Of a stretch of DNA of 64,000 nt, positions 27,079 to 45,414 are shown piece by piece. The stretch's first letter is position 1; each line of letters begins with the position of its first letter. Source of the DNA: Candidatus Bathyarchaeia archaeon (lineage in GTDB: Archaea > Thermoproteota > Bathyarchaeia > Bathyarchaeales > Bathycorpusculaceae); the NCBI GenBank assembly GCA_038882975.1, contig JAVZNE010000001.1, forward strand, positions 224,001-288,000. The letters are read 5' to 3'. The notes beneath the pieces are model-generated. The model worked only from the letters and a program-made list of their open reading frames with translations, was not told the origin of the DNA and made no database searches. The position numbers and the translations under genes were made by a program.

Positions 27079-27696
27079 CTAAACGTTTAAAGCTGAGCTT
27101 TGAGCAATATTTTCCGAAGCCTTTTCTCCTTCCAAAATCTTTTTCAGCTCCCTTTTCATGGTTGGGATGTCATGGCTTAGACCAAAATAGTCTGCAAAGT
27201 AGTCCGTCGTCTTCAAAATGGAGGCGCGTCCCTTTCGCTCTACGGTAACTAAGCCCATTTCTTTTAACAGTTTAATATGCCCGTAAGCGTGATGACCTCG
27301 AACTTCCACCACTCGTTTTTGAGAGACTGGTTGTCTTAGGGCTATGTAGGAAAGTGTCTTTAATGGACCGGTGGAGAGCAGCGGTCTTTTGACAAGCTTT
27401 CGGACATGCGGTGTAAATTCTGCTTTAAGTTGTAAAACAAACCTTTCATCCTTTAGTTCGAGAATTTCAAGGGCTGTGTCCCTTTTGGCATACTCCTGCG
27501 CTAAAATTTTTACAAGCCGCTTAGCCTTGTTTTTCGAACGCGTTTTTAGAACTGAGCATAACTCTGAGAGGTCTAGGGGGCGACCAGCAACATATAATGC
27601 AGCCTCCACCAGCGCAAGGTCGCTGATGAATTTGCCCTGTCTGATTTGTGAACTTTCTTCTGCGTTATTGGGTTGAGCCTTCATTTCTTGCAGCAT
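27079..27696 (-). CDS. scpB: SMC-associated kite protein ScpB
   Basis: VEAALY, TLSYIA.RQP, RG, TT..F..YFGL; synteny with smc and scpA. Confidence 0.9.
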   Translation of the reverse strand: MLQEMKAQPNNAEESSQIRQGKFISDLALVEAALYVAGRPLDLSELCSVLKTRSKNKAKRLVKILAQEYAKRDTALEILELKDERFVLQLKAEFTPHVRKLVKRPLLSTGPLKTLSYIALRQPVSQKRVVEVRGHHAYGHIKLLKEMGLVTVERKGRASILKTTDYFADYFGLSHDIPTMKRELKKILEGEKASENIAQSSALNV

Positions 27697-28363
27697 CTGT
27701 TCCTCCAATTGTGATGTATATTTCTTCCGTTTCCTCGTCTTGCCAAAGGCTTACTTTTCCATCTTGAGCCAAGAAAAGTAGAAGGATGAATGTGCGTATG
27801 GCTTCTAGGCGCGCCAACCCTTTAATTATGGTTGAGAACTGGATTATTCCGGCGCCCTTCACCATTTCTGAAAGGTATTTGTAAAGCTTTTCCATTTGAA
27901 GCTCTATTTCCATGAGATAGTAATCTATTTGTGGGAAAATTTCAGAAGGGGTCGGCAGAATAGGCTTGGCTGGAACTTTCTCCAGACGGAAAAACGTCTC
28001 CCCCTTTAAAACGTCGTCCAGCACTTCTAGTAGGTGGCGTATAGTTGTTGATGTTAGCTCGTGTCTAAGCGGCAGAAAAAGTGGTGGAGGAATAAAATCT
28101 AATGGTGGCTTTGGCGGTGGTGGCGGCTCCTCAAGTTTTAGGAGAAGCTTCGACTTCATTAGATATATGAGGGCAGAAGAGTCTAAGGCTACGCCTGAAG
28201 CCCTAAAATCAATTTGCCCAGTTTTTTCCATCTCTTCGAGGAAAGTTGTCAGTAAATATGCAATGTTTATGTTCCATGGTGTGAGTTTCTCAAGTTTGTG
28301 GAACTCGAAGAGAATGTTCCAAGGCGGGCGGAGGTAAAAGGGCTTTTTGATTGTTGTAGCCAT
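27665..28363 (-). CDS. scpA: Kleisin ScpA
   Basis: PW.INI..L, ALIY.MKS, C-terminal F..LLFL..DG...L.Q. Confidence 0.88.
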   Translation of the reverse strand: MATTIKKPFYLRPPWNILFEFHKLEKLTPWNINIAYLLTTFLEEMEKTGQIDFRASGVALDSSALIYLMKSKLLLKLEEPPPPPKPPLDFIPPPLFLPLRHELTSTTIRHLLEVLDDVLKGETFFRLEKVPAKPILPTPSEIFPQIDYYLMEIELQMEKLYKYLSEMVKGAGIIQFSTIIKGLARLEAIRTFILLLFLAQDGKVSLWQDEETEEIYITIGGTDAARNEGSTQ

Positions 28364-28365
28364 CT

Positions 28366-31300
28366 TCAGCCTGTCACCTCTAGGAACCTGGCTGAAACAA
28401 CATATGAGACGCCGTTGCGCCCGTAAACCCCATAGACTTTCTGGGCCTTGTTAACCATTTCAGGCTTTAACGTGATGACGATAAATTGGGCTTTTTCGGA
28501 TTCTTCTAATAAGACGTCGGCAAGTCTTGACACGTGGAAGGCGTCCAAATGCGCATCAATTTCGTCTAGTATGTAGAAGGAGGCTGGTGTGAAGTCTTTT
28601 ATGGCAAAGAGGAAGGCTACGGCTGCCACTGAACGTTCGCCACCGCTGGCGCCGCTAACCACAATTGATGGCTTGTTTGGGAGCTGGACAATCATGTCTA
28701 TGCCGCCAGAGAAGGGCTCTTCTGGATTCTCCAAAATTAGGTTAGCTGCCCCACCGCCAGTGAGTTTTGAAAAGTATTTTTGCAGGTTTTGGTTTATCTT
28801 TCCAAAGGCTTCCATGAACACCTTATGTTTTTTGCTTTCAATTTCCTCCATGAACTTTAGAATGGCTTGCTTTTCCCTTTCAAGCTCATTCATCCTTAGG
28901 GAAAGCTCTTTGTAGCGAGATATTTGCTCAGCGTAATGAGAAAGGGCAAGCTGGTTAACACCGCTTATCCTTTCAAGCTCGAATTGGAGCATCCTTAAAG
29001 AGGCTTCTGCCTCTTCAACCTCTTTGACTGTAACTTCTAAGGGCTTTTCGTAGCCAAACTGTTTAAGCTGGTTTTGCCACTGTTCCAGCTGTATCATGGA
29101 CGTCTGTATATTCAGCTGGTACTGGTTCAGGAGTCGGTCGGTTTCCTCATATTCGGCTTCGATTTTGCGGAGTTCCTTGTCTATCTCGTCTATTTGGTTT
29201 GAGAATTTTTGGGCTTCTTCTTTTGCTGATAAAACGGTTTTTGAGAGTTCGATGCGGCTCTTCTCCAGCTCTGCCAGCTCTTGCTTTAGTTTCTCCCTTT
29301 CTTGGAGCGCTTCCTCCACCTCGCTTTCAACTTTGCGCAGTTGCTGTTCAATCTTTGCCAGCTGGATTTTAGCGTTCTTGTAGCCCACCCTCAAAACATT
29401 GTCAAACTGCGATTGAAGTGTTGAAATCTCTGTTTGCACAGCCCCAAGCTTCTGCCTTAAAGTGTTTATCTCTTCTGCCAGCTTTTCACGTTTAACTTCC
29501 ATCTCTTGAATGTTTGCTGGGTCAACCTTCCGCCTTAAGCCGGCTAACTCGCTTTGAAGCTTGCGTATCTCCTTTTGCAGTGTGCTTCTTTCAGCCCTAT
29601 AAGTCCATATTTTCGCCTTCTCAGCCTCGATTTCGCCTTCAATACGTTTTATGTTAGACTCTATTCTTCTAACGTTCGATTTTGTTCTTTTTATGCTTCT
29701 TTTTACGCGGGCAATTTCCCTATCAAGTGTTGTTATGGCTTCTGATAAGCGTGCAATTTCAACGCGTGTTCTGTCTATTTCCTCTTCAAGGGTTGCTATG
29801 TCGCTTCCCCGTCTGGAAAGGTGCTGTTGCAAAGCTCTAACAGCTTCGTCTAGGCTTTTTATCGCCGCCTCGCTTGGTATTATGGCTGAAAAATCTATGG
29901 GTGCACGGTAATAGCCGCTTTCCAGGGCGCCGCCGGGCTCGTATAAGTCGCCGTTTACAGTGACTACGCGGTAGCCTCTGCTAGAAAGCTCGAAGGCTGT
30001 TTTGTCTTCTGGAACAACAAGGGTGTCGCCAAAAACAAAGTAAACAGCCGGCTCATACTGTTTGGCGCATTTTACAAAGGAGAAGGCTGCGCCATTAACG
30101 TTTATGTCCTCTGGAACTTTTATCGGCTTCGTGGCTGAAACTGCTTCCAGCGGGATTATCTTTATCCTTCCAAGCTTCATTCTGCGCAGAGTTTCCGTGC
30201 ATGTAAAAGCCGCGTCGAAGTTCTTCACAACTAGGGCGTCCAGCCATCCTCCAGCTGCAACTTCAATTGCTTGTTGATAGGCTTTGTCTATTTTGATTAG
30301 GTTGCGTAAACGCCCATAAACGCCTTGAATTACTCCTAACTCGCCGAGTTCTTCGATGCTTTTTAGGGCTTTTTCTTCTGCAGCAACCGTTTCTGCGAGT
30401 TCCCTCTGCGTTGCAAACTCCACAACAGCTTCGCGGGCTGATTCAGCTATTTTTCCAGCTTCTGCTATTTCCCTTTCTATGGCTTCTTTTTGGGCTATGC
30501 GGTGCTCGAGCATGCGCTCCAAATTTTTAAGCTGTGTTTTCTGCTCCTTCTGAACTTTTATAAGCTCTGCCATAGATTTCCCAAGTTCGCCAAGGGTGGA
30601 GGCGAACCTTTCTTTCCGCTCGTTTAAGTCCCTAAGTCTTCTTTCTCGGATTTTTATGGCTGTTTGGCTTTTTGCATGTTCAGACCTTAAAAACGCTAGT
30701 CGCTTATAGTCTCTGTCGAGTTGAAGTTCTATTTCGCGTATTCTCTTGCTGTTTTCGCCTATGCTCTCCCAGAGTTGGGCGGTTTCCTCCGCGAGTGCAT
30801 CATGTTCTGCTTGTTTGGAATTGATTTGGCTCATTATACGTTCGTATTCGCTTCTCAGCCGCCTAATTTTCAGTCTGTTCTCATGAATTTCGCTTCTTAT
30901 GGAGTGGTATTGTTGGAGGCTGTTCTCCCTAACTTTTTTCAGTCCTTCTAGACTTGTTTTTCCAGAGCTTATTTTTGTGGCTAGCTCTGTAAGTTTTGAT
31001 TTCAGCTCGCCTATCTTCATTTGAACCCTAAAAACCTGTGAACCTCCCTCCTCGACGATTTCTGAGCTTAGTTTTCGCCATTCGCCCTCGATTTCCCTTC
31101 GCCTTTGCCTATACTGGTCGCGAAGTGCCCTAATCTTTTCCAGTCTGCTTTTGATTTTCTCCGCTTGAATTGAGTCCCGCTTAATTTTTTCTTGTATTTG
31201 TGCAATGTCGTGAGAGAGCTTGACAGCCTCAAACTTTTTAATCTCATTTTTTAGAAAGTTATACCGCAATAGTTCGTTGCGTTCCCTCTCCAAGTCTTCA

Positions 31301-31914
31301 ACTCTTCTTTGCACCTCTTCTATTCTCCCCATAGCAGTGCGGATGGAAATGTCTGCTGCCCTAAGCTTCTCTTCAGCTTCGGCTTTTTCCGCGTCGTATT
31401 GGGCTATCCCAACAAGGTCTTCGATTATTTTCCGCCTTTCCATTGGGGAGATGTCCGTCAGTCGGGTTATGGTGCCCTGCAACACAATGTTTTGGCTGGT
31501 TGAGCTTATGCCAGCCATTGAGAGAATTTCCATTATGTGGACTCTTGAGATCCGCCTTCCATTAAGCCTATAAACAGACTGTCCGTTCCGGTAGACTTCA
31601 CGGGATATTGTGACCGTCGCCGTGTCAACGGGTATACGTCCATCAGAATTGTCAAATTGTATAACCACTTTAGCCATTCTAGCCCTTTCCAGCCCAGCTT
31701 TTTCCGAGCCGTGGAAAATTAGTTTGGCAGCACTTTCAGCCCGGAGTCGCTTAGTGCTTAATTCTCCCAGGGCGAACAAAACAGCATCAACAACATTTGT
31801 TTTCCCGCTTCCATTCGGGCCGGTTATGGCTGTAAAACCCTTATCTAGGACTATTTTTGCCGTCTCTCCGAAGGATTTGAAGCCTTTAATTTCTATTTTT
31901 TTGATATAGGGCAT
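28366..31914 (-). CDS. smc: Chromosome segregation protein SMC
   Basis: Walker A GPNGSGKT, long coiled coils, hinge, SGGE signature, LDEIDAHLD. Confidence 0.97.
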   Translation of the reverse strand: MPYIKKIEIKGFKSFGETAKIVLDKGFTAITGPNGSGKTNVVDAVLFALGELSTKRLRAESAAKLIFHGSEKAGLERARMAKVVIQFDNSDGRIPVDTATVTISREVYRNGQSVYRLNGRRISRVHIMEILSMAGISSTSQNIVLQGTITRLTDISPMERRKIIEDLVGIAQYDAEKAEAEEKLRAADISIRTAMGRIEEVQRRVEDLERERNELLRYNFLKNEIKKFEAVKLSHDIAQIQEKIKRDSIQAEKIKSRLEKIRALRDQYRQRRREIEGEWRKLSSEIVEEGGSQVFRVQMKIGELKSKLTELATKISSGKTSLEGLKKVRENSLQQYHSIRSEIHENRLKIRRLRSEYERIMSQINSKQAEHDALAEETAQLWESIGENSKRIREIELQLDRDYKRLAFLRSEHAKSQTAIKIRERRLRDLNERKERFASTLGELGKSMAELIKVQKEQKTQLKNLERMLEHRIAQKEAIEREIAEAGKIAESAREAVVEFATQRELAETVAAEEKALKSIEELGELGVIQGVYGRLRNLIKIDKAYQQAIEVAAGGWLDALVVKNFDAAFTCTETLRRMKLGRIKIIPLEAVSATKPIKVPEDINVNGAAFSFVKCAKQYEPAVYFVFGDTLVVPEDKTAFELSSRGYRVVTVNGDLYEPGGALESGYYRAPIDFSAIIPSEAAIKSLDEAVRALQQHLSRRGSDIATLEEEIDRTRVEIARLSEAITTLDREIARVKRSIKRTKSNVRRIESNIKRIEGEIEAEKAKIWTYRAERSTLQKEIRKLQSELAGLRRKVDPANIQEMEVKREKLAEEINTLRQKLGAVQTEISTLQSQFDNVLRVGYKNAKIQLAKIEQQLRKVESEVEEALQEREKLKQELAELEKSRIELSKTVLSAKEEAQKFSNQIDEIDKELRKIEAEYEETDRLLNQYQLNIQTSMIQLEQWQNQLKQFGYEKPLEVTVKEVEEAEASLRMLQFELERISGVNQLALSHYAEQISRYKELSLRMNELEREKQAILKFMEEIESKKHKVFMEAFGKINQNLQKYFSKLTGGGAANLILENPEEPFSGGIDMIVQLPNKPSIVVSGASGGERSVAAVAFLFAIKDFTPASFYILDEIDAHLDAFHVSRLADVLLEESEKAQFIVITLKPEMVNKAQKVYGVYGRNGVSYVVSARFLEVTG

Positions 31915-38848: not shown

Positions 38849-39184
38849 ATGGTTGGGAGTGGGGAAGAGGAGAAGATTAGGCGTATATTGACGGATGCTA
38901 GGCTTTCGGCGATTAAGGCTATGTTGGAGAAGGACCACGCCATTGACTGTATTTTCCTATTGTATATGGGGCGGGGGAAGTGGAAGGAAGCGAAGGAGTT
39001 TATGAGGGCTAATGGGTTGACGCTTAGTGATGGCACTTTTAGGGCTAGGATGATGGAGATTGAGGAGCTTGGCTTAGCGAAAAGTGAGCGGTTAGACCCT
39101 TTGAAGAAGAAGTATGAGAAGACGGAGTTTGGCGACAAAGTTGCTAAACTTCTCATAGAGTTCTTTGACAAGCTTGGCGTTTAG
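38849..39184 (+). CDS. Winged-helix-like DNA-binding protein
   Basis: LSDGTFRARMMEIEELGLA recognition helix followed by a wing ending YEKTEFG. Confidence 0.7.
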   Translation: MVGSGEEEKIRRILTDARLSAIKAMLEKDHAIDCIFLLYMGRGKWKEAKEFMRANGLTLSDGTFRARMMEIEELGLAKSERLDPLKKKYEKTEFGDKVAKLLIEFFDKLGV

Positions 39185-39555: not shown

Positions 39556-39662
39556 GTTGTTTTGTTTTACAAATGGATAATATGGTGTATTAAGTCGTAA
39601 GATTTAAATTCTAAGCTTCCCCTAACATACACGATAACAAAAAGGGAGGGATATAAAAGAAA

Positions 39663-40106
39663 ATGAAAATGCTGAAGAGTAGGAAAGCCCTAAGCCCCGT
39701 AGTAGCATCCATCATCCTCATAGCCGTAACAGTCGCCGTCAGCCTAGCCGTGGCTGTATGGATGGGTGGACTAGCCTTCACATTCACAAAAACAGAAGAA
39801 CTAAAGATAACGGGTGCTGACTGGGTGGCTCCGTCTGGCGGAAGCAAATATGTGAACATCTCAGTGTCAAATACCGGCGCATCTGCGGTCTCTGTCTCTA
39901 AAGTATATATAGATAACGTACAATACTCGGTAGCTGGCTATAGTGGGTTTACATATGATTCTTCAACTGGTAGTTATACTTTGGCCAAAGGAGCGTCTGG
40001 TGTGCTCAAAGTAACCTTCCCCTGGTCTTCAAATCAAAAGTATACTATAGCGTTGCAAACAACCACTGGAAATAAGTACGAATATACAACAACAGCTGTT
40101 CCATAA
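39663..40106 (+). CDS. Archaeal type IV pilin (class III signal peptide)
   Basis: RKA/LSPVVASIILIAVTVAVS prepilin motif; Ser/Thr-rich beta domain. Confidence 0.92.
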   Translation: MKMLKSRKALSPVVASIILIAVTVAVSLAVAVWMGGLAFTFTKTEELKITGADWVAPSGGSKYVNISVSNTGASAVSVSKVYIDNVQYSVAGYSGFTYDSSTGSYTLAKGASGVLKVTFPWSSNQKYTIALQTTTGNKYEYTTTAVP

Positions 40107-40201
40107 CAAACTGCAGACAACGTTGAGATTGGGGGTAGGGTGTTAGCTGTTTCCAAAATTTTCCCCTATTCTATTGTTCCATGTTGGAGGTGTAAAATCG
40201 T

Positions 40202-40627
40202 ATGGTAGTGGAATTGAAGGAGTATGCTTCGGCTGAGGACATAGCCGAAACCCTGGAGAAGCAGATAGCCGAAACTAAGAGCACTTTGGGCGAGTACCTG
40301 CGCCGCCTAGACGAGATTAGGGCACTAGCCGAAAAGTCTAAGAAAATCCGAGAAGTGGTTATGAAGTTGGCTGGGAAGAAGGCGGCTGCCGAAAGCCTTG
40401 GCGAAATAACAGTTGGCAGTTTAAGTATTGTTTTGGATGCCAACCCATTCCACGAGCTGACAGCCATAGAGCAGGTAGTCCGAAGCTATCAGGAGAGGCT
40501 TCTGGTCTTGCAGAAAGCACGAGAAGCCCTAAAATGGCTTGACCAGCTAGGAGACACTGAAGGCTTAAAATACATTGTTGTTGAAAACGACGGCGTTCCA
40601 GAGCGCATCCTATTCAAAATAACATAG
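40202..40627 (+). CDS. Hypothetical coiled-coil protein
   Basis: SD GGAGGTG; helix, short beta segment, helix pattern. Confidence 0.75.
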   Translation: MVVELKEYASAEDIAETLEKQIAETKSTLGEYLRRLDEIRALAEKSKKIREVVMKLAGKKAAAESLGEITVGSLSIVLDANPFHELTAIEQVVRSYQERLLVLQKAREALKWLDQLGDTEGLKYIVVENDGVPERILFKIT

Positions 40628-40657
40628 CCAAGCGCCCTCCTTTAAAGTGGTGAAAGC

Positions 40658-41491
40658 ATGATGGAAAATGATGTCTATGCTGTTGCGCTACAAAATGCCT
40701 TAAACGAGATGCGAAACGCTTGTCCAGAAATACATCACGCCTTCATCCTCAAAGAAACAGGCGAAGTAATCGCCGGAGACGCGGAAACCCCTCAAAAGGT
40801 CGTTGTTCGAGTTTTAGACGCCTTCAACGGCATATTCAACAGGGCTGAAGCCATAGGAGGCGTTGAAGCTATAACCCTAAAATGTGGCGGCGGCACGGTA
40901 ACCCTCCACAGTTTTGGCGAAAATCACCTCGTCATGGTCACGTCTGCAAAGGCAGACCTAAACTACATAAACACTTTAACCCGCGTCCTAATCCCAACAG
41001 TTCTTAAACTGCTAGAGAAAATCAGCCCTACCCCCCTCAAAAACATACCCCCACAGAAGACGGCAAGGCCAACACCACCAGCCATAAGCGAACTAGAAAC
41101 CCCAAAAATCGGCGAACCCCCAGAGGAGGAGGTTGCCGAAGAACCAATTATGGAAAAGCCAAAACAAGAGGAAGTTAAAACAGAAGTGCCGTCCTTCGAG
41201 GTGCCAGCCACCCAGCTAATAGTGGAAAACATTGGAGGCTTGCTAGTGCCATCAGATACTGTGCGCATAGACAATGAAACCCTAACTCAATGGGAAAACA
41301 TGTTTGAAGGCAAAAAAGTTGAATACGTCGAAATAGAAACTTTCGATGGAAAAACAACAAAGTGCAAGGTTAAACCCATAAAGGACTCAAAATATTTTGG
41401 CAAGGGGATAGTGCAAGTTCCAGAGAAAATGCAGCTAACCCTGGAAATCAAGAAGGGCGAACTCGTCAGGGTTAAGCCTATAATAGAATAA
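40658..41491 (+). CDS. Roadblock/LC7-like N-domain + Pro/Glu linker + CDC48-N-like double-psi beta-barrel C-domain
   Basis: N-terminal helix then AFILKETGEVIA. C-terminal DTVRID...GKGIVQVP...IKKGELVRVKP resembles the CDC48 N-domain. Confidence 0.6.
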   Translation: MMENDVYAVALQNALNEMRNACPEIHHAFILKETGEVIAGDAETPQKVVVRVLDAFNGIFNRAEAIGGVEAITLKCGGGTVTLHSFGENHLVMVTSAKADLNYINTLTRVLIPTVLKLLEKISPTPLKNIPPQKTARPTPPAISELETPKIGEPPEEEVAEEPIMEKPKQEEVKTEVPSFEVPATQLIVENIGGLLVPSDTVRIDNETLTQWENMFEGKKVEYVEIETFDGKTTKCKVKPIKDSKYFGKGIVQVPEKMQLTLEIKKGELVRVKPIIE

Positions 41492-41507
41492 AAACGGAGG
41501 CGCGTTC

Positions 41508-41906
41508 ATGACAAAGAAAAAGAAAAGCCTAGAAGAAACCGCAACCGCAGAAACACTAGTCCAACCAATAGCCATAGAAACAGCTACGATAGAAGACCTA
41601 AAAACCCGCCTAGAAGAGATTAAGGGCTACGAAGGCGTAATAGGCTATATACTGCGAAACGCCACATCAGCAACCATAGACCTAAAAGACCCAACAAAAC
41701 TCATAGAATACGCCATCCTCTCCTCATCGGCTCTCGACGCTGCAGAAGAACTATCAGAACTGTTTAGTCTAGGAGACTTCCGCGACATCCTCGTGGAGGG
41801 AAGAGACACAAAAATCCTCTCCTTAACAATAGGCGAAAACAGAATAAGCATATTCCTCGAGAAAAACGCCGACATAGAAAAACCCCTCAAAAAACTCCAA
41901 TTTTAA
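41508..41906 (+). CDS. Roadblock/LC7-like protein
   Basis: LEEIK..EGVIGYIL, long helix, ILVEG..TKIL..., ISIFLEK.A.I; SD GGAGG. Confidence 0.7.
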   Translation: MTKKKKSLEETATAETLVQPIAIETATIEDLKTRLEEIKGYEGVIGYILRNATSATIDLKDPTKLIEYAILSSSALDAAEELSELFSLGDFRDILVEGRDTKILSLTIGENRISIFLEKNADIEKPLKKLQF

Positions 41907-42036
41907 AGGGGCTTAAAAGGGCACAATCCCTCATTTTCCAATCTTGCTTCTCTCTTCAGAACACTTAAATCTCCCTCTGCAAATTTATTCAAGTGGAGAA
42001 GGGAACCTTTTAAGCCTCCCTAAAGGAGGCAACATA

Positions 42037-42324
42037 TTGAACTTGCAGGCAAATAACAGGAAGCATAGCAATAAACATCGAGGAAGCCTAGACATAATCG
42101 CAGACATTCTAAGAGCCTCAAAAGGGAAAACAAGGAAAACATACCTCATGTACCGATGCAATTTAAGCTTTAGACAGCTAGAAAACTATTTGAACCTCCT
42201 CTTGGAAAGGGGACTCCTAAAAGCCATAAAAGACAACGGCAACGACACAAGCTTGTTTAGGATTACGGAAAAGGGTGAACGCTTTTTAGAAACCTACAAG
42301 GGCTTATTGGGGCTTATGGAGTAA
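42037..42324 (+). CDS. Winged-helix transcription regulator (R..LDII.DIL type)
   Basis: KT.LMYRCNLS...L..YL..L...GLL...F.ITEKG.RFL; SD GGAGG before TTG 42037. Confidence 0.85.
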   Translation: MNLQANNRKHSNKHRGSLDIIADILRASKGKTRKTYLMYRCNLSFRQLENYLNLLLERGLLKAIKDNGNDTSLFRITEKGERFLETYKGLLGLME

Positions 42325-42534
42325 AGTTTTGAGGAAAACATCGCTAAGCCTCACCCTTTCACCACACTCTTCCACAACCACAAAGTTATACTTGACTAGA
42401 AACTCTACCGCCCTTTTTAGGTCTTGACGGCCAAGCCTTGTTTTCCGCCGTAACTCTTCTAAAGAGTGCCATTCGCCATCCTCGAGGAGTTCAAGGATTT
42501 TTGAAATAGTCTTTTCCGTTGATGTGTCCTCCAG
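42304..42534 (-). CDS. Small winged-helix-like protein with a probable CTG start (absent from the ORF track)
   Basis: 76-codon frame: ILELLEDGEWHSLEELRRKTRL..DLKRAVEFLVKYNFV...VRLS. Confidence 0.6.
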   Translation of the reverse strand: MEDTSTEKTISKILELLEDGEWHSLEELRRKTRLGRQDLKRAVEFLVKYNFVVVEECGERVRLSDVFLKTLLHKPQ

Positions 42535-42618
42535 CGTACTTACTAGTTTTGCCAGAATTGTTTAAATGCCTTCTGAAGTTTTCTTTTAGAGGCTTCCTCT
42601 AGAACAAAAAACGAGAGA

Positions 42619-45414
42619 TTATGCCCCAACCTGCTTTCTCAAAACTTCCTCAACCTTTTCTAGGGCTTCTTTCAGCTTTTCCGGTTTTGTACCTCCGCCC
42701 TGTGCGAAGTTTGTTCTTCCACCGCCTCCGCCGCCAATTATTTCTGAGGCTTCTCGGACAATTTCAGCCGCGTTTACGCCTTTTTCAACAGCCTTTTTCC
42801 CAGCCATAACCATTATCCGAGCTGTTTTTCCATCGGAACCATAAAATACGGCAACAGCCGAGTCGTCCTTCTTTATTATTTCGTTTGCCGTTTGAACCAT
42901 AACATCAACGTTTATCTCCTCTTTAAAATCGCGGGTCACAAGTCTAACTTCGCCTATTTGGCGGACGACCTCTAAGCTTGGTTCTACTCCAACGCCTACA
43001 ACAGCCTGTTTAGCCAGCTTCTCCACAAGCTTCCTTCTTTCCGCCTTCACCTCCTTCAATTCCCTGACGATTTTTTCAGCTGTTTTGTCAAGCTTCTCCA
43101 GTGGAGCGCCGAGGGTTTCTGAAACCCGCCAGAGAAGCTCCTCATTCCTCTGCATAGCCTTCAAGGCTTGGATTCCAACAGCATAAACAAGCCTTTCAAC
43201 GCCGTCTTGTATTCTCTCTGAATGGATGATTTTTATGAAGCCTATCTCGCCGGTGTTCCTAACATGGGTTCCGGCGCAAGCCTCAACCTCCCAGTCTCCA
43301 ACCTTCACAACGCGGATTTCTTTGCCGGGAACAGCTCCGCCTTGATAAAGCCTAAAACCGTATTGGCTTTCAGCCTCCGACCTTGGAAGCCACATGGTTT
43401 CGACGGGTATGTTTCTGAAAACAGCCTCATTGGCTAAAGCCTCTATTTTCTGCACCTCTTCCCGTGTTAATCTGCGGTAGTGGGATATGTCAAGTCTTGA
43501 ACTTTCAACGCTCTTTTGCGTGCCAAACTGCCAAACATGCTGCCCCAAAACGCGTCTTGCCGCGCCATTAACAATGTGGGTGGCTGTGTGCGCCTTCATT
43601 AGGGCGTAGCGCTTATCCCAATCAATGACCCCTCTAATAGTGGCGCCTTCCCTTGGGGCCTTTTTGCCACCAATTTTGTGGACAATAACCTTGCCAACCT
43701 TCTTAACGTCTAAAACTTCGGCTTTCCCGTCTTCGAAAAATAGCCAACCAGTGTCTGATGGTTGCCCACCGCCCTCTGGATAGAAACACGTTTTATCAAG
43801 AATGACGTATTCGCCACCGCCAATAACCTTCAAGACTTTAGCCTTAAACTCGTGCATATATTGGTCCTTATAGTAAAGCGTCTCTGTTTCTGGAAGACCA
43901 GCCACCTCATCCTCAAGCCACTTTTCAGTTTTAGCCTCCTCCTCGGTTGGTTTCTGGGTTTGCATGTGCCTTTCGGCAATCAATGCATAGAAGTTTTCGG
44001 GAACAGCAGCCTCTAAACCTTCGCTTTCGGCTATTTCCTTAACAATTTCTGGCGGAACACCATGCGAGTCGTAAAGCTCCGTCATGGTTTCAACTGGAAC
44101 ACGCCCCACGCCTTTAGCCCTAAGCTCTCCGGCAAGCCTTCTTACTAGGCGTTCACCCCTCGTGATGGTCTCCTTATATTTCTCCTCTTCAACGGCGAGA
44201 ATCTCCATTATTTCGTTGCGCATCTCCCTAAGATGCGGATAATCCAAAGACCAATAATCAATCTGCAAGTCAAAAATGTCATATAGCTTGTCTGCGATGC
44301 CAAGCATCCTTAGCAGACGGTATATTCTGCGGAAAAGAAGCCTAGCCAAGTAGCCCTCCTGAATGTTGGATGGAACAACTCCCTCAGAAAGGATGAAGGT
44401 TAGGCATTTCGTGTGGTCCGTGATTGCAAAGGCATTCTCAACCGGAAGCAAAACATCATCCAATGTTTTCGCGTCAATGCCAATGGCTTCGGCTATCTTC
44501 CTTCTAGCCTCAAATCTGCCAACAGTTTTGTCTAAGCTTATCATAGCTGAATACTTGGCAACCTTCGCCAACAAATCGTAATCAAAGCTTACTCCAGCCA
44601 TCTTGAAGACTTTGCCAAGCAATTCGCCGTAAATGGCGTGAAAAGCGCTGACAGAGCCTTGAGAAAGCCATGCATATCGGTCTATTCCATAGCCAACATC
44701 AACGGTCCGTATTGGCAATTTAATAAACTGGTCGCCGACAACCTTGTACTGCATAAAGACAAGCGTGGCAACTTCTAATCCGCGAACGATACACTCTAAA
44801 CATGGACCAGCATTTCCGCCCCCAGACCAAATCTCTTCCTTATAGGTTACCTCTTCTGGTTTTATACTCAACTCTCTGGCAAATTCATCGTGATAGCGAA
44901 CCGTCTCATCCTTCCAGTAAACCTCCTTGTCAGGGTAGTTGAAGGCGTGCTCCCCACCCATCTCAAAAATTGTAACGTACTTGCCAAAGGTTGGACCAGT
45001 ATTGGTTATGTCCACAAGGCGGATACATGGCTGAGCAATAACGAGAGGATTTGCCGGGGGCGGAGCAATCCCCTCAGTAACATAGGGCTGAAAGTCAATT
45101 ATGCTTGCATGCGTCAAGTATATGTCGTCCCGCCACCTAGCCACAACCGGGTAGGGCTTTATCCGCGTGTGTCCCCGCCTCTCAAAGAAGGAGAGGAAGA
45201 ACTCCCGCATCTCCCGCAAATTGTAGCTCCGCCTTGTGGGCGGGTTCCCAATAAAAGTGTAGTGGGCACAACCTTCCGGTCTGGCTTCCCCACAAGTTTC
45301 TTGTTCAGGGTTTAAGGTCCAATAGTATGTGCCGCACTTTGGACAAAGTTTCCTAACATAACCCTTCTCCTTAAAGAAGGGAAGGGCATACTCCTCTGCT
45401 GGAAATCTCTCCAA
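42619..45414 (-). CDS. alaS: Alanyl-tRNA synthetase
   Basis: ASI.DFQP, QPCIR, FEM, editing HTATH..CAGTH, DHHA1 GGGGG tail. Confidence 0.97.
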   Translation of the reverse strand: MERFPAEEYALPFFKEKGYVRKLCPKCGTYYWTLNPEQETCGEARPEGCAHYTFIGNPPTRRSYNLREMREFFLSFFERRGHTRIKPYPVVARWRDDIYLTHASIIDFQPYVTEGIAPPPANPLVIAQPCIRLVDITNTGPTFGKYVTIFEMGGEHAFNYPDKEVYWKDETVRYHDEFARELSIKPEEVTYKEEIWSGGGNAGPCLECIVRGLEVATLVFMQYKVVGDQFIKLPIRTVDVGYGIDRYAWLSQGSVSAFHAIYGELLGKVFKMAGVSFDYDLLAKVAKYSAMISLDKTVGRFEARRKIAEAIGIDAKTLDDVLLPVENAFAITDHTKCLTFILSEGVVPSNIQEGYLARLLFRRIYRLLRMLGIADKLYDIFDLQIDYWSLDYPHLREMRNEIMEILAVEEEKYKETITRGERLVRRLAGELRAKGVGRVPVETMTELYDSHGVPPEIVKEIAESEGLEAAVPENFYALIAERHMQTQKPTEEEAKTEKWLEDEVAGLPETETLYYKDQYMHEFKAKVLKVIGGGEYVILDKTCFYPEGGGQPSDTGWLFFEDGKAEVLDVKKVGKVIVHKIGGKKAPREGATIRGVIDWDKRYALMKAHTATHIVNGAARRVLGQHVWQFGTQKSVESSRLDISHYRRLTREEVQKIEALANEAVFRNIPVETMWLPRSEAESQYGFRLYQGGAVPGKEIRVVKVGDWEVEACAGTHVRNTGEIGFIKIIHSERIQDGVERLVYAVGIQALKAMQRNEELLWRVSETLGAPLEKLDKTAEKIVRELKEVKAERRKLVEKLAKQAVVGVGVEPSLEVVRQIGEVRLVTRDFKEEINVDVMVQTANEIIKKDDSAVAVFYGSDGKTARIMVMAGKKAVEKGVNAAEIVREASEIIGGGGGGRTNFAQGGGTKPEKLKEALEKVEEVLRKQVGA

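Follow-up and report, generated by a model that had tools for sequence, protein, structure and literature searches.

A conserved pilin, cc141 and roadblock gene module of Bathyarchaeia and its possible role in a type IV pilus-like system

The gene module considered here lies within a stretch of 64,000 nucleotides (the window; positions 224,001 to 288,000 of contig JAVZNE010000001.1, forward strand) in the genome of a Candidatus Bathyarchaeia archaeon (assembly GCA_038882975.1; 1.42 Mb, 15 contigs, 94.68% complete). A first-pass annotation, made by a model from the sequence of the window and its translated reading frames, had described a pilin gene followed by genes for a 141-aa coiled-coil protein, two roadblock proteins and winged helix-turn-helix (wHTH) regulators, with no GTPase among them. 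All six of its reading frames were recovered at the same positions in the open reading frame (ORF) list of the window. The features of the locus are as follows.

38849..39184, plus strand: probable winged-helix regulator of 111 aa, encoded upstream of the pilin; belongs to no named family
39591..39609, plus strand: 19-nt putative promoter element TAAGTCGTAAGATTTAAAT with a TATA-like box inside, ~55 nt 5' of the pilin start codon
39663..40106, plus strand: archaeal type IV pilin-like protein (UpsA-like), 147 aa, with a class III signal peptide
40127..40140, plus strand: 14-nt element GATTGGGGGTAGGG, a conserved block directly 3' of the pilin stop codon
40202..40627, plus strand: cc141, a 141-aa helical hairpin with small beta elements; member of a Thermoproteota-wide family, probably arCOG04264
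40658..41491, plus strand: rbl277, 277 aa, with a Roadblock domain, a Pro/Glu-rich linker and a double-psi beta-barrel (DPBB, Cdc48-N-like)
41508..41906, plus strand: rbl132, 132 aa, a Roadblock-domain paralogue with a basic N-terminal tail
42037..42324, plus strand: HTH_45/Sso10a-family winged helix, 95 aa, with a probable TTG start; frame open from 41944
42304..42540 (5' limit approximate), minus strand: small convergent frame, possibly a winged helix, overlapping the 3' end of the HTH_45 gene
42619-45414, minus strand: alanyl-tRNA synthetase, the next gene after the convergent frame

The central genes are tightly packed, with intergenic gaps of 30 nt between cc141 and rbl277 and 16 nt between rbl277 and rbl132, in which GGTGA/GGAGG motifs are found. 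No GTPase gene is present within the cluster according to the ORF list, as the first-pass annotation had claimed, and scans of the window for tRNA genes and Rfam families returned no match. The structural conservation of the module was investigated in 18 related loci, which were fetched from relatives chosen for an rbl277 match. The gene order from the 111-aa gene via pilin, cc141 and rbl277 to rbl132 is kept in 17 of them, and the exception (L023) holds a homologue of the barrel domain only. The pilin and rbl132 were each found in 16 of the 18 loci, the 111-aa protein in 14 and the HTH_45/Sso10a gene in 11; absent end genes in L019, L025 and L027 coincide with contig ends. The recurrence in 17/18 loci documents that the arrangement is far beyond chance. 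The module described by the first-pass annotation is thus real, and its linkage to a pilin extends to other genomes.

The proteins of the module differ in their degree of conservation. Mean pairwise identity among the related loci is highest for cc141 (82%), followed by the 111-aa upstream protein (79%), the barrel domain of rbl277 (55%), rbl132 (51%), the roadblock domain of rbl277 (45%) and the pilin (43%). The 141-aa protein, initially cast as a side part, accordingly shows the strongest conservation in the module, and it is through this protein that a link to pilus-assembly genes appears in other lineages. Among 41 relatives, rbl277 was found in 28 (19 of the 27 genomes of good quality). 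An even sample of 251 genomes across the phylum gave 18 matches to the rbl277 profile, 17 of them strong and all located in four families of one order, and one marginal (E 6.3e-4). These 17 genomes are exactly those of the order with a strong cc141 match, and rbl277 lies directly downstream of cc141 in each of them. Within the phylum sample the module is confined to this single order of Bathyarchaeia, uncultured archaea of hot springs. A wider search recovered 1230 rbl277 homologues at E<=1e-3 among 2112 candidates, and among the 120 homologues listed, all NCBI source names with a taxon point to Bathyarchaeia.

The structure of rbl277 was predicted with AlphaFold2 (AF2) from a 34-sequence alignment and compared by Foldseek. 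Residues 1-122 are predicted to adopt the Roadblock fold (9jue_C, E 6.9e-7, TMt 0.83), with further matches to MglB (6hjm, 6izw and 3t12 among them), LAMTOR2 and MP1, and their modelled secondary structure follows the alpha-beta-beta-alpha-beta-beta-beta(-alpha) succession of Roadblock/LC7 (PF03259); no Pfam match was obtained for this domain at E<=1. A disordered linker rich in proline and glutamate (residues ~124-179) leads to residues 185-275, which are modelled as a complete six-strand double-psi beta-barrel with two short helices (7dg9, E 8.8e-7, TMt 0.83) and match designed DPBB proteins in PDB profile searches at E 1.5e-4. The second roadblock protein, rbl132, reaches E 4.1e-4 and 20.5 bits against Pfam Robl_LC7, below the gathering cut-off of 23, and a genome-wide search with this model yielded 20.7 bits, likewise below the cut-off. 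A profile of 16 rbl132 homologues retrieves the Roadblock structure 7yh1_D from the PDB at E 6.7e-4. The hidden Markov model (HMM) of the rbl277 N-domain has rbl132 as its sole match in the genome (E 1.2e-7), which indicates that the two are paralogues and the only roadblock-like genes found. The profile match and the paralogy identify rbl132 as a probable member of the Roadblock family. The claim of two roadblock proteins was therefore borne out, for rbl277 by the predicted fold and for rbl132 by these two lines of evidence. Both proteins are acidic, with isoelectric points of 5.15 (rbl277) and 4.82 (rbl132); the C-domain of rbl277 has a value of 6.56.

A potential GTPase partner was sought in the entire genome. 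Ras, Arf and SRPRB profiles gave no match over the cut-off in the 94.68%-complete assembly, and a motif screen of its small P-loop ORFs returned no small GTPase candidate. The sub-threshold matches belong to HflX-like (416 aa), DRG-like (397 aa) and FeoB-like (653 aa) proteins and to translation factors. A Ras-family match over the cut-off is present in two of the 41 relatives (G033, G038), both of which are devoid of rbl277, and none was obtained in the 28 relatives that carry it. The absence of a GTPase from the cluster is thus strengthened by the genome-wide result.

The AF2 model of cc141 (pLDDT 90.7) opens with a short strand and a helix of 47 residues; a beta-hairpin connects these to a second helix of 35 residues, and another beta-hairpin ends the chain. 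Its family comprises 137 clusters at E<=1e-3 in a HMMER search of 1.84 billion representatives, mostly of 135-145 aa and down to ~23% identity, with source names including Marsarchaeota, Thermoprotei, Desulfurococcales and Pyrofollis; some members are automatically named 'prefoldin'. In the phylum sample, 96 of the 251 genomes match the cc141 profile, ~75 of them at full length with E<=2e-18, and 58 of the latter are located outside the order. Structural comparisons provided no specific counterpart. A profile search of the PDB returned nothing significant; Foldseek returned nothing at E<=1e-3, its best weak rows being V1-ATPase subunit chains and prefoldin; a VIA-wide structure search gave only generic helical hairpins with Z 9-10.5; and the ESM Atlas proposed YlqD at 0.81, below the useful level. 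No fusion of cc141 with another domain occurs among the 137 matches, and the variants are disordered N-terminal extensions or a C-terminal tail. The distant homologues P0177 and P0199 carry C-terminal extensions of ~85-95 residues with a similar short hydrophobic-basic end motif, and other homologues have N-terminal extensions rich in lysine, glutamate and proline. A second, divergent cc141-like gene (181-190-aa frames, E 1e-12 to 1e-14) is present in several genomes of the order (G178:C9:28216-28668, G025:C68:11303-11761, G247:C24:4636-5100, G039:C43:670-1125); none was found in the genome studied here.

The name 'prefoldin' was examined separately, and an identity of cc141 with canonical prefoldin was rejected. 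The alignment of the family with the organism's own prefoldins by hhalign gave probabilities of 0.7% (beta) and 4.5% (alpha), and genes for the canonical alpha and beta subunits are present at other places in the genome. No Prefoldin Pfam match (PF02996 / PF01920) was found for cc141 at E<=1. Foldseek probabilities against prefoldin chains range from 0.20 to 0.75, all with E>0.1, and the VIA comparison with 1fxk_A (Z 9.5, root-mean-square deviation 5.5 over 97 residues) is equalled in Z by many unrelated helical hairpins.

A published compilation of archaeal pilus loci allows the family to be placed. The cc141 match of one sampled genome (G091/L092, 655868-656260, minus strand) agrees in coordinates, length and neighbours with the arCOG04264 gene of Fervidicoccus fontis (655859..656260), which is listed with a 2937-nt gene for a protein that bears a signal, together with FlaI, TadC and a PadR gene (Makarova, Koonin and Albers 2016, PMC4858521 supplement). 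Since coordinates and neighbours coincide in F. fontis, and a further listed locus corresponds as well, the cc141 family is probably arCOG04264. According to the supplement entries concerned, arCOG04264 is an 'uncharacterized protein, predicted prefoldin' beside FlaI/TadC in F. fontis and Hyperthermus butylicus, and it is not flagged there as a pilus component. Two named species in the same source show the gene order that is given below for L092 and L122, with arCOG04264 in the position of cc141.

Our own survey of the cc141 neighbourhood outside the order is based on 35 fetched loci from 21 genera and 11 families. A FlaI-type ATPase and/or TadC is encoded within 7 kb of the cc141 homologue in eight of these loci, corresponding to 5 of the 21 genera and 4 of the 11 families. 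The chance expectation for such proximity is roughly estimated, without controls, at 2-5% per locus, assuming ~3-7 such loci per genome of 1.3-2.4 Mb. The ATPase and TadC proteins of the eight loci are closest to those of the pilus locus at C1:111-115 kb of the genome under study, the ATPase of which is encoded at C1:113063-114688. Two of the loci (L092 and L122, two genera of one family) show the succession pilin, TadC, ATPase, large protein and cc141 on a single strand. A large protein of 850-1240 aa is the direct neighbour of cc141 in four families, in one of them without ATPase genes nearby. These proteins combine a Sec signal and CarboxypepD_reg/PEGA domains with a membrane anchor at the C-terminus and a short, acidic tail in the cytoplasm, and they are homologous between families (E 1e-6 to 1e-17). 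The acidic tail of the large neighbours at L082, L084, L085, L092, L121 and L122 often ends in EEE[LV]F, which could be a docking motif for a cytoplasmic partner.

Within the order the module adjoins an ATPase and TadC pair in one of 17 loci (L021). The genome under study harbors three loci with ATPase, TadC and pilin genes (T2SSE and T2SSF), all outside the window, and a prepilin peptidase (Peptidase_A24 with Arc_PepC_II, C1:103598-104416). The N-terminus of the module's own pilin matches TIGR02537 (archaellin/type IV pilin N-terminal domain) with 30.9 bits at a cut-off of 20, and the protein combines a class III signal peptide with a hydrophobic N-terminal pilin domain; Pfam Pilin_N reaches E 0.09 only. 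Its full length aligns to the UpsA model (NF046073, equivalog) at E 3.3e-12 with 46.7 bits, below the cut-off of 130, and on sequence grounds we class it as UpsA-like and not as UpsA.

The control region of the pilin is conspicuously conserved. The 19-nt element TAAGTCGTAAGATTTAAAT is exact in 13 of the 15 related loci that hold the upstream DNA (two mismatches in L020, no copy in L026), occurs once in the genome when up to 3 mismatches are allowed, and is strictly kept although the pilins share only ~43% identity. We read it as a putative promoter composed of a TATA box and a B recognition element (BRE). The 14-nt element GATTGGGGGTAGGG, which is conserved in an alignment of 15 pilin-cc141 spacers, likewise has a single occurrence in this genome. 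No consensus RNA structure was predicted from the spacer alignment, and hairpins that include the element did not outperform shuffled sequences in folding (z -0.36 to -2.84). The 111-aa protein encoded upstream shows 49 invariant alignment columns among its 14 sequences and no match in Pfam, NCBIfam or PDB searches; its ESM-Atlas features resemble winged helices of the HxlR type (0.93) and the ArnR1 type (0.91), which provides a lead only. The 478-nt spacer upstream of the pilin promoter contains five copies of a ~15-nt motif (CCYCTCTAKGRWTTT-like) between 39307 and 39550, spaced by 50-64 nt. Copies of this motif are also present in the same-genus loci L013 and L014, one or two in L028 and L030, and none was found in the nine loci checked outside the genus. 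For a stricter version of 11 nt, the window has 5 occurrences versus 0.84 expected.

Evidence for expression was obtained from metatranscriptome contigs of three RNA libraries from two studies, which match at >=85% identity and hence originate from relatives. They cover the 5' part of the pilin gene, cc141, rbl277 and rbl132. The junction between cc141 and rbl277 is bridged by X11 record 9, X14 record 19 and X16 record 28, and that between rbl277 and rbl132 by X11 record 9 and X14 records 21 and 22. The region 41964-42600 has no RNA-library contig and represents a gap in the cover. The operon appears to be transcribed in relatives.

At the downstream end, the frame 41944-42324 matches HTH_45 (E 1.5e-19) and the Sso10a family NF053610 (75.9 bits, cut-off 60), and TTG 42037 is its probable start, given a GGAGG motif 7 nt upstream and ORFs of 93-100 aa in most relatives; seven to eight paralogues are encoded elsewhere in the genome. 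The convergent frame is open for 82 codons and has no ATG, GTG or TTG start here, and the same holds for three loci of the same genus (L013, L014, L030); L028 has a TTG, and homologues in relatives do have canonical starts. Its designation as a winged helix, also part of the first-pass annotation, derives from weak matches and is a possibility. An HTH_45/Sso10a gene that faces a small convergent gene, the two overlapping at their 3' ends, is found at three places in the genome (42037-42540 of the window; G000 C11:42367-43058; G000 C5:87292-87965). Elsewhere in the window, an SMC-like 1182-aa gene (27079-31914, minus strand) is located ~8 kb upstream of the module and unlinked to it, with two small genes downstream; these were assigned from ORF lengths and N-termini. 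A reading of the locus as a defence system was discarded, the PADLOC matches being at chance level (best E 7.6e-5, a generic HTH).

The predicted folds, the paralogy of the roadblock proteins, the strict co-occurrence and adjacency, the negative search for a small GTPase and the recurrent pilus-locus context of cc141 lead us to infer an adaptor or regulator of a pilus-like machine. Our preferred reading, to which we assign a probability of roughly 55%, is that the module serves a type IV pilus-like system from the cytoplasm, in an accessory or regulatory capacity and independently of a GTPase. cc141 is its old core, and the roadblock paralogues are an order-specific addition. The physical contacts and the functional outcome that we propose are the following. 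The roadblock domains of rbl277 and rbl132 would pair as a heterodimer, as roadblock proteins generally do, and this dimer would carry one double-psi beta-barrel on a flexible linker of ~55 residues. The barrel may serve as a peptide- or partner-binding adaptor; the N-domains of Cdc48 bind partners. Together with cc141, the dimer would act in the cytoplasm, as an adaptor or regulator, at one of the genome's three type IV pilus machines, with cc141 joining the assembly either to the platform of ATPase and TadC or to the ends of the machine's substrates on the cytoplasmic side. The module would control the assembly or placement of filaments made of the operon's pilin, and it would do so without a Ras-like GTPase. 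The conserved pilin promoter is probably regulated by the 111-aa upstream protein. Because the three pilus loci lie outside the window and have no roadblock genes, the module would act in trans. A complex prediction with the N- and C-domains of rbl277, the domain of rbl132 and cc141 as scored partner, run without controls, gave a score of 0.01 versus a mark of 0.32, a value that says nothing on the roadblock pair and speaks neither for nor against binding.

Several observations weigh against this proposal. The module is ~145 kb or more away from each of the three pilus-assembly loci, none of which includes a roadblock gene. Outside the order, the other 27 of the 35 loci show unrelated cc141 neighbours (succinyl-CoA ligase with pyrophosphatase, the CCA-adding enzyme or undecaprenyl-diphosphate synthase), and the family may have a wider role. 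None of the 35 loci revealed a roadblock gene beside cc141 in searches with HMMs derived from the order, with Pfam on 130 of the 142 neighbouring ORFs (12 ORFs of near-duplicate loci left out) and, for 14 small unnamed neighbours, at E<=1. BLASTP detected no similarity between the 989-aa surface protein of the corresponding pilus locus in this genome and the large cc141 neighbours elsewhere. No specific structural relative of cc141 was found by PDB profile search, Foldseek or VIA. Finally, RNA contigs, here from relatives, cannot prove a single transcript, and libraries can contain DNA.

The alternative that survives best regards cc141 as a general cytoplasmic factor, either chaperone-like or an envelope/secretion adaptor for surface proteins, with the pilin as one client or neighbour. 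The varied surroundings in 27/35 loci and the large type I membrane protein with its acidic tail, a constant neighbour in four families, are consistent with such a function, as are the database names 'prefoldin' and a helix, hairpin, helix topology that may resemble that of prefoldin beta. The organism, however, encodes both canonical prefoldin subunits elsewhere, the profile probabilities are as low as 4.5% and 0.7%, and in this order cc141 is consistently preceded by the pilin gene, whose promoter and spacer elements are conserved. We regard this explanation as doubtful.

A transcription-control unit is less probable, and we consider it unlikely. The roadblock proteins would sense a ligand or partner, and an AbrB-related barrel would act on DNA together with the flanking winged helices, thereby setting pilin expression. 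The C-domain profile of rbl277 indeed matches AbrB-family regulators weakly (E 0.026-0.034) and has conserved lysines, three putative DNA-binding genes flank the operon, and the promoter element is strictly conserved. However, the modelled barrel is a complete single-chain one of the Cdc48-N type and not one half of a swapped-hairpin dimer, rbl277 and rbl132 are acidic, and the link of cc141 to pilus-assembly genes would be left unexplained.

Very improbable is the MglAB model of the first-pass annotation, namely that the roadblock pair, like MglB or Ragulator, acts on a small GTPase from another locus and thereby sets pilus polarity: the fold of rbl277 does match MglB and LAMTOR2, and a roadblock gene stands beside an Srp102-like GTPase and KaiC-like genes in Methanobacterium pilus loci of the PMC4858521 supplement, but no small GTPase was retrieved from the 94.68%-complete genome with the Ras, Arf and SRPRB profiles, and the two relatives with a Ras-family match lack the module.

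The preferred reading of a GTPase-independent pilus accessory module invites a broader and more tentative one. arCOG04264/cc141 might be an ancient, unrecognised cytoplasmic part of a FlaI/TadC-type pilus or surface-protein machine across Thermoproteota, to which Bathyarchaeia would have added a GTPase-free roadblock heterodimer; this is possible, and we hold it with low confidence. cc141 might, for example, be an adaptor that keeps pilin precursors, or the short acidic cytoplasmic tails of surface proteins, in place at the ATPase.

The usual reading of roadblock proteins, exemplified by MglB, Ragulator and the actinobacterial conservon, pairs them with small GTPases. A conserved roadblock pair in genomes in which no small GTPase was found is a clean test case for a GTPase-independent role of the fold, and the proposal, if true, would establish such a use of the roadblock scaffold in prokaryotic surface-filament control. 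The accessory proteins of crenarchaeal-type pilus machines are, to our knowledge, largely unknown, and cc141 (probably arCOG04264, mislabelled 'prefoldin') is a candidate for one of their missing cytoplasmic parts. Bathyarchaeia are abundant and uncultured, and knowledge of their surface filaments bears on their attachment to particles or partners. The claim is testable, given that relatives of cc141 are located beside FlaI/TadC in cultivated hyperthermophiles named in the PMC4858521 supplement.

Among known systems, Ragulator resembles the module in its paired roadblock paralogues and in a mostly helical small partner encoded alongside (LAMTOR1 wraps in Ragulator), and LAMTOR2 and MP1 are among the structural matches. 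It differs in that no Rag GTPase is present here and that cc141 shows no relation to LAMTOR1, and the likeness stems from genes and predicted folds. The MglA/MglB polarity switch of Myxococcus and Thermus is linked to type IV pili and shares with the module the Roadblock fold and this pilus connection. In contrast, searches of the genome and of the relatives that carry the module gave no MglA-like GTPase, and MglB is a homodimer, whereas here a paralogue pair with an added barrel domain is present. The C-domain of rbl277 superposes in its model on the N-terminal barrel of Cdc48/VAT from archaeal VCP-like ATPases (7dg9, 7dbo, 7dg7; TMt 0.79-0.83), but it is unattached to an AAA ATPase and scores 16.6-20.2 bits with Pfam CDC48_N, below the cut-off of 35.1. 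As to arCOG04264, the 'prefoldin' label is not borne out by profile comparison, the bathyarchaeal gene is part of a new operon with roadblock genes, and our literature search encountered this arCOG in no paper's main text.

The closest counterparts are pilus loci with roadblock genes of arCOG02603, for which a literature search returned PMC4858521 only; a search combining Bathyarchaeia, type IV pili and roadblock yielded nothing relevant. Genes of arCOG02603 are frequent in archaeal pilus loci, with no function given in the parts of the source that describe them (Makarova, Koonin and Albers 2016, PMC4858521), and the Methanobacterium loci of its supplement comprise a pilin, one roadblock gene and an Srp102-like GTPase and/or KaiC-like ATPases. 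The common feature is a roadblock-fold gene beside a gene for a pilin with a class III signal peptide. Unlike the listed Methanobacterium loci, the module described here has two paralogues, one of them fused to a barrel, together with cc141 and without a GTPase. The system is a variant on the roadblock genes in archaeal pilus loci and not wholly new; the initial designation as an undescribed system holds in part.

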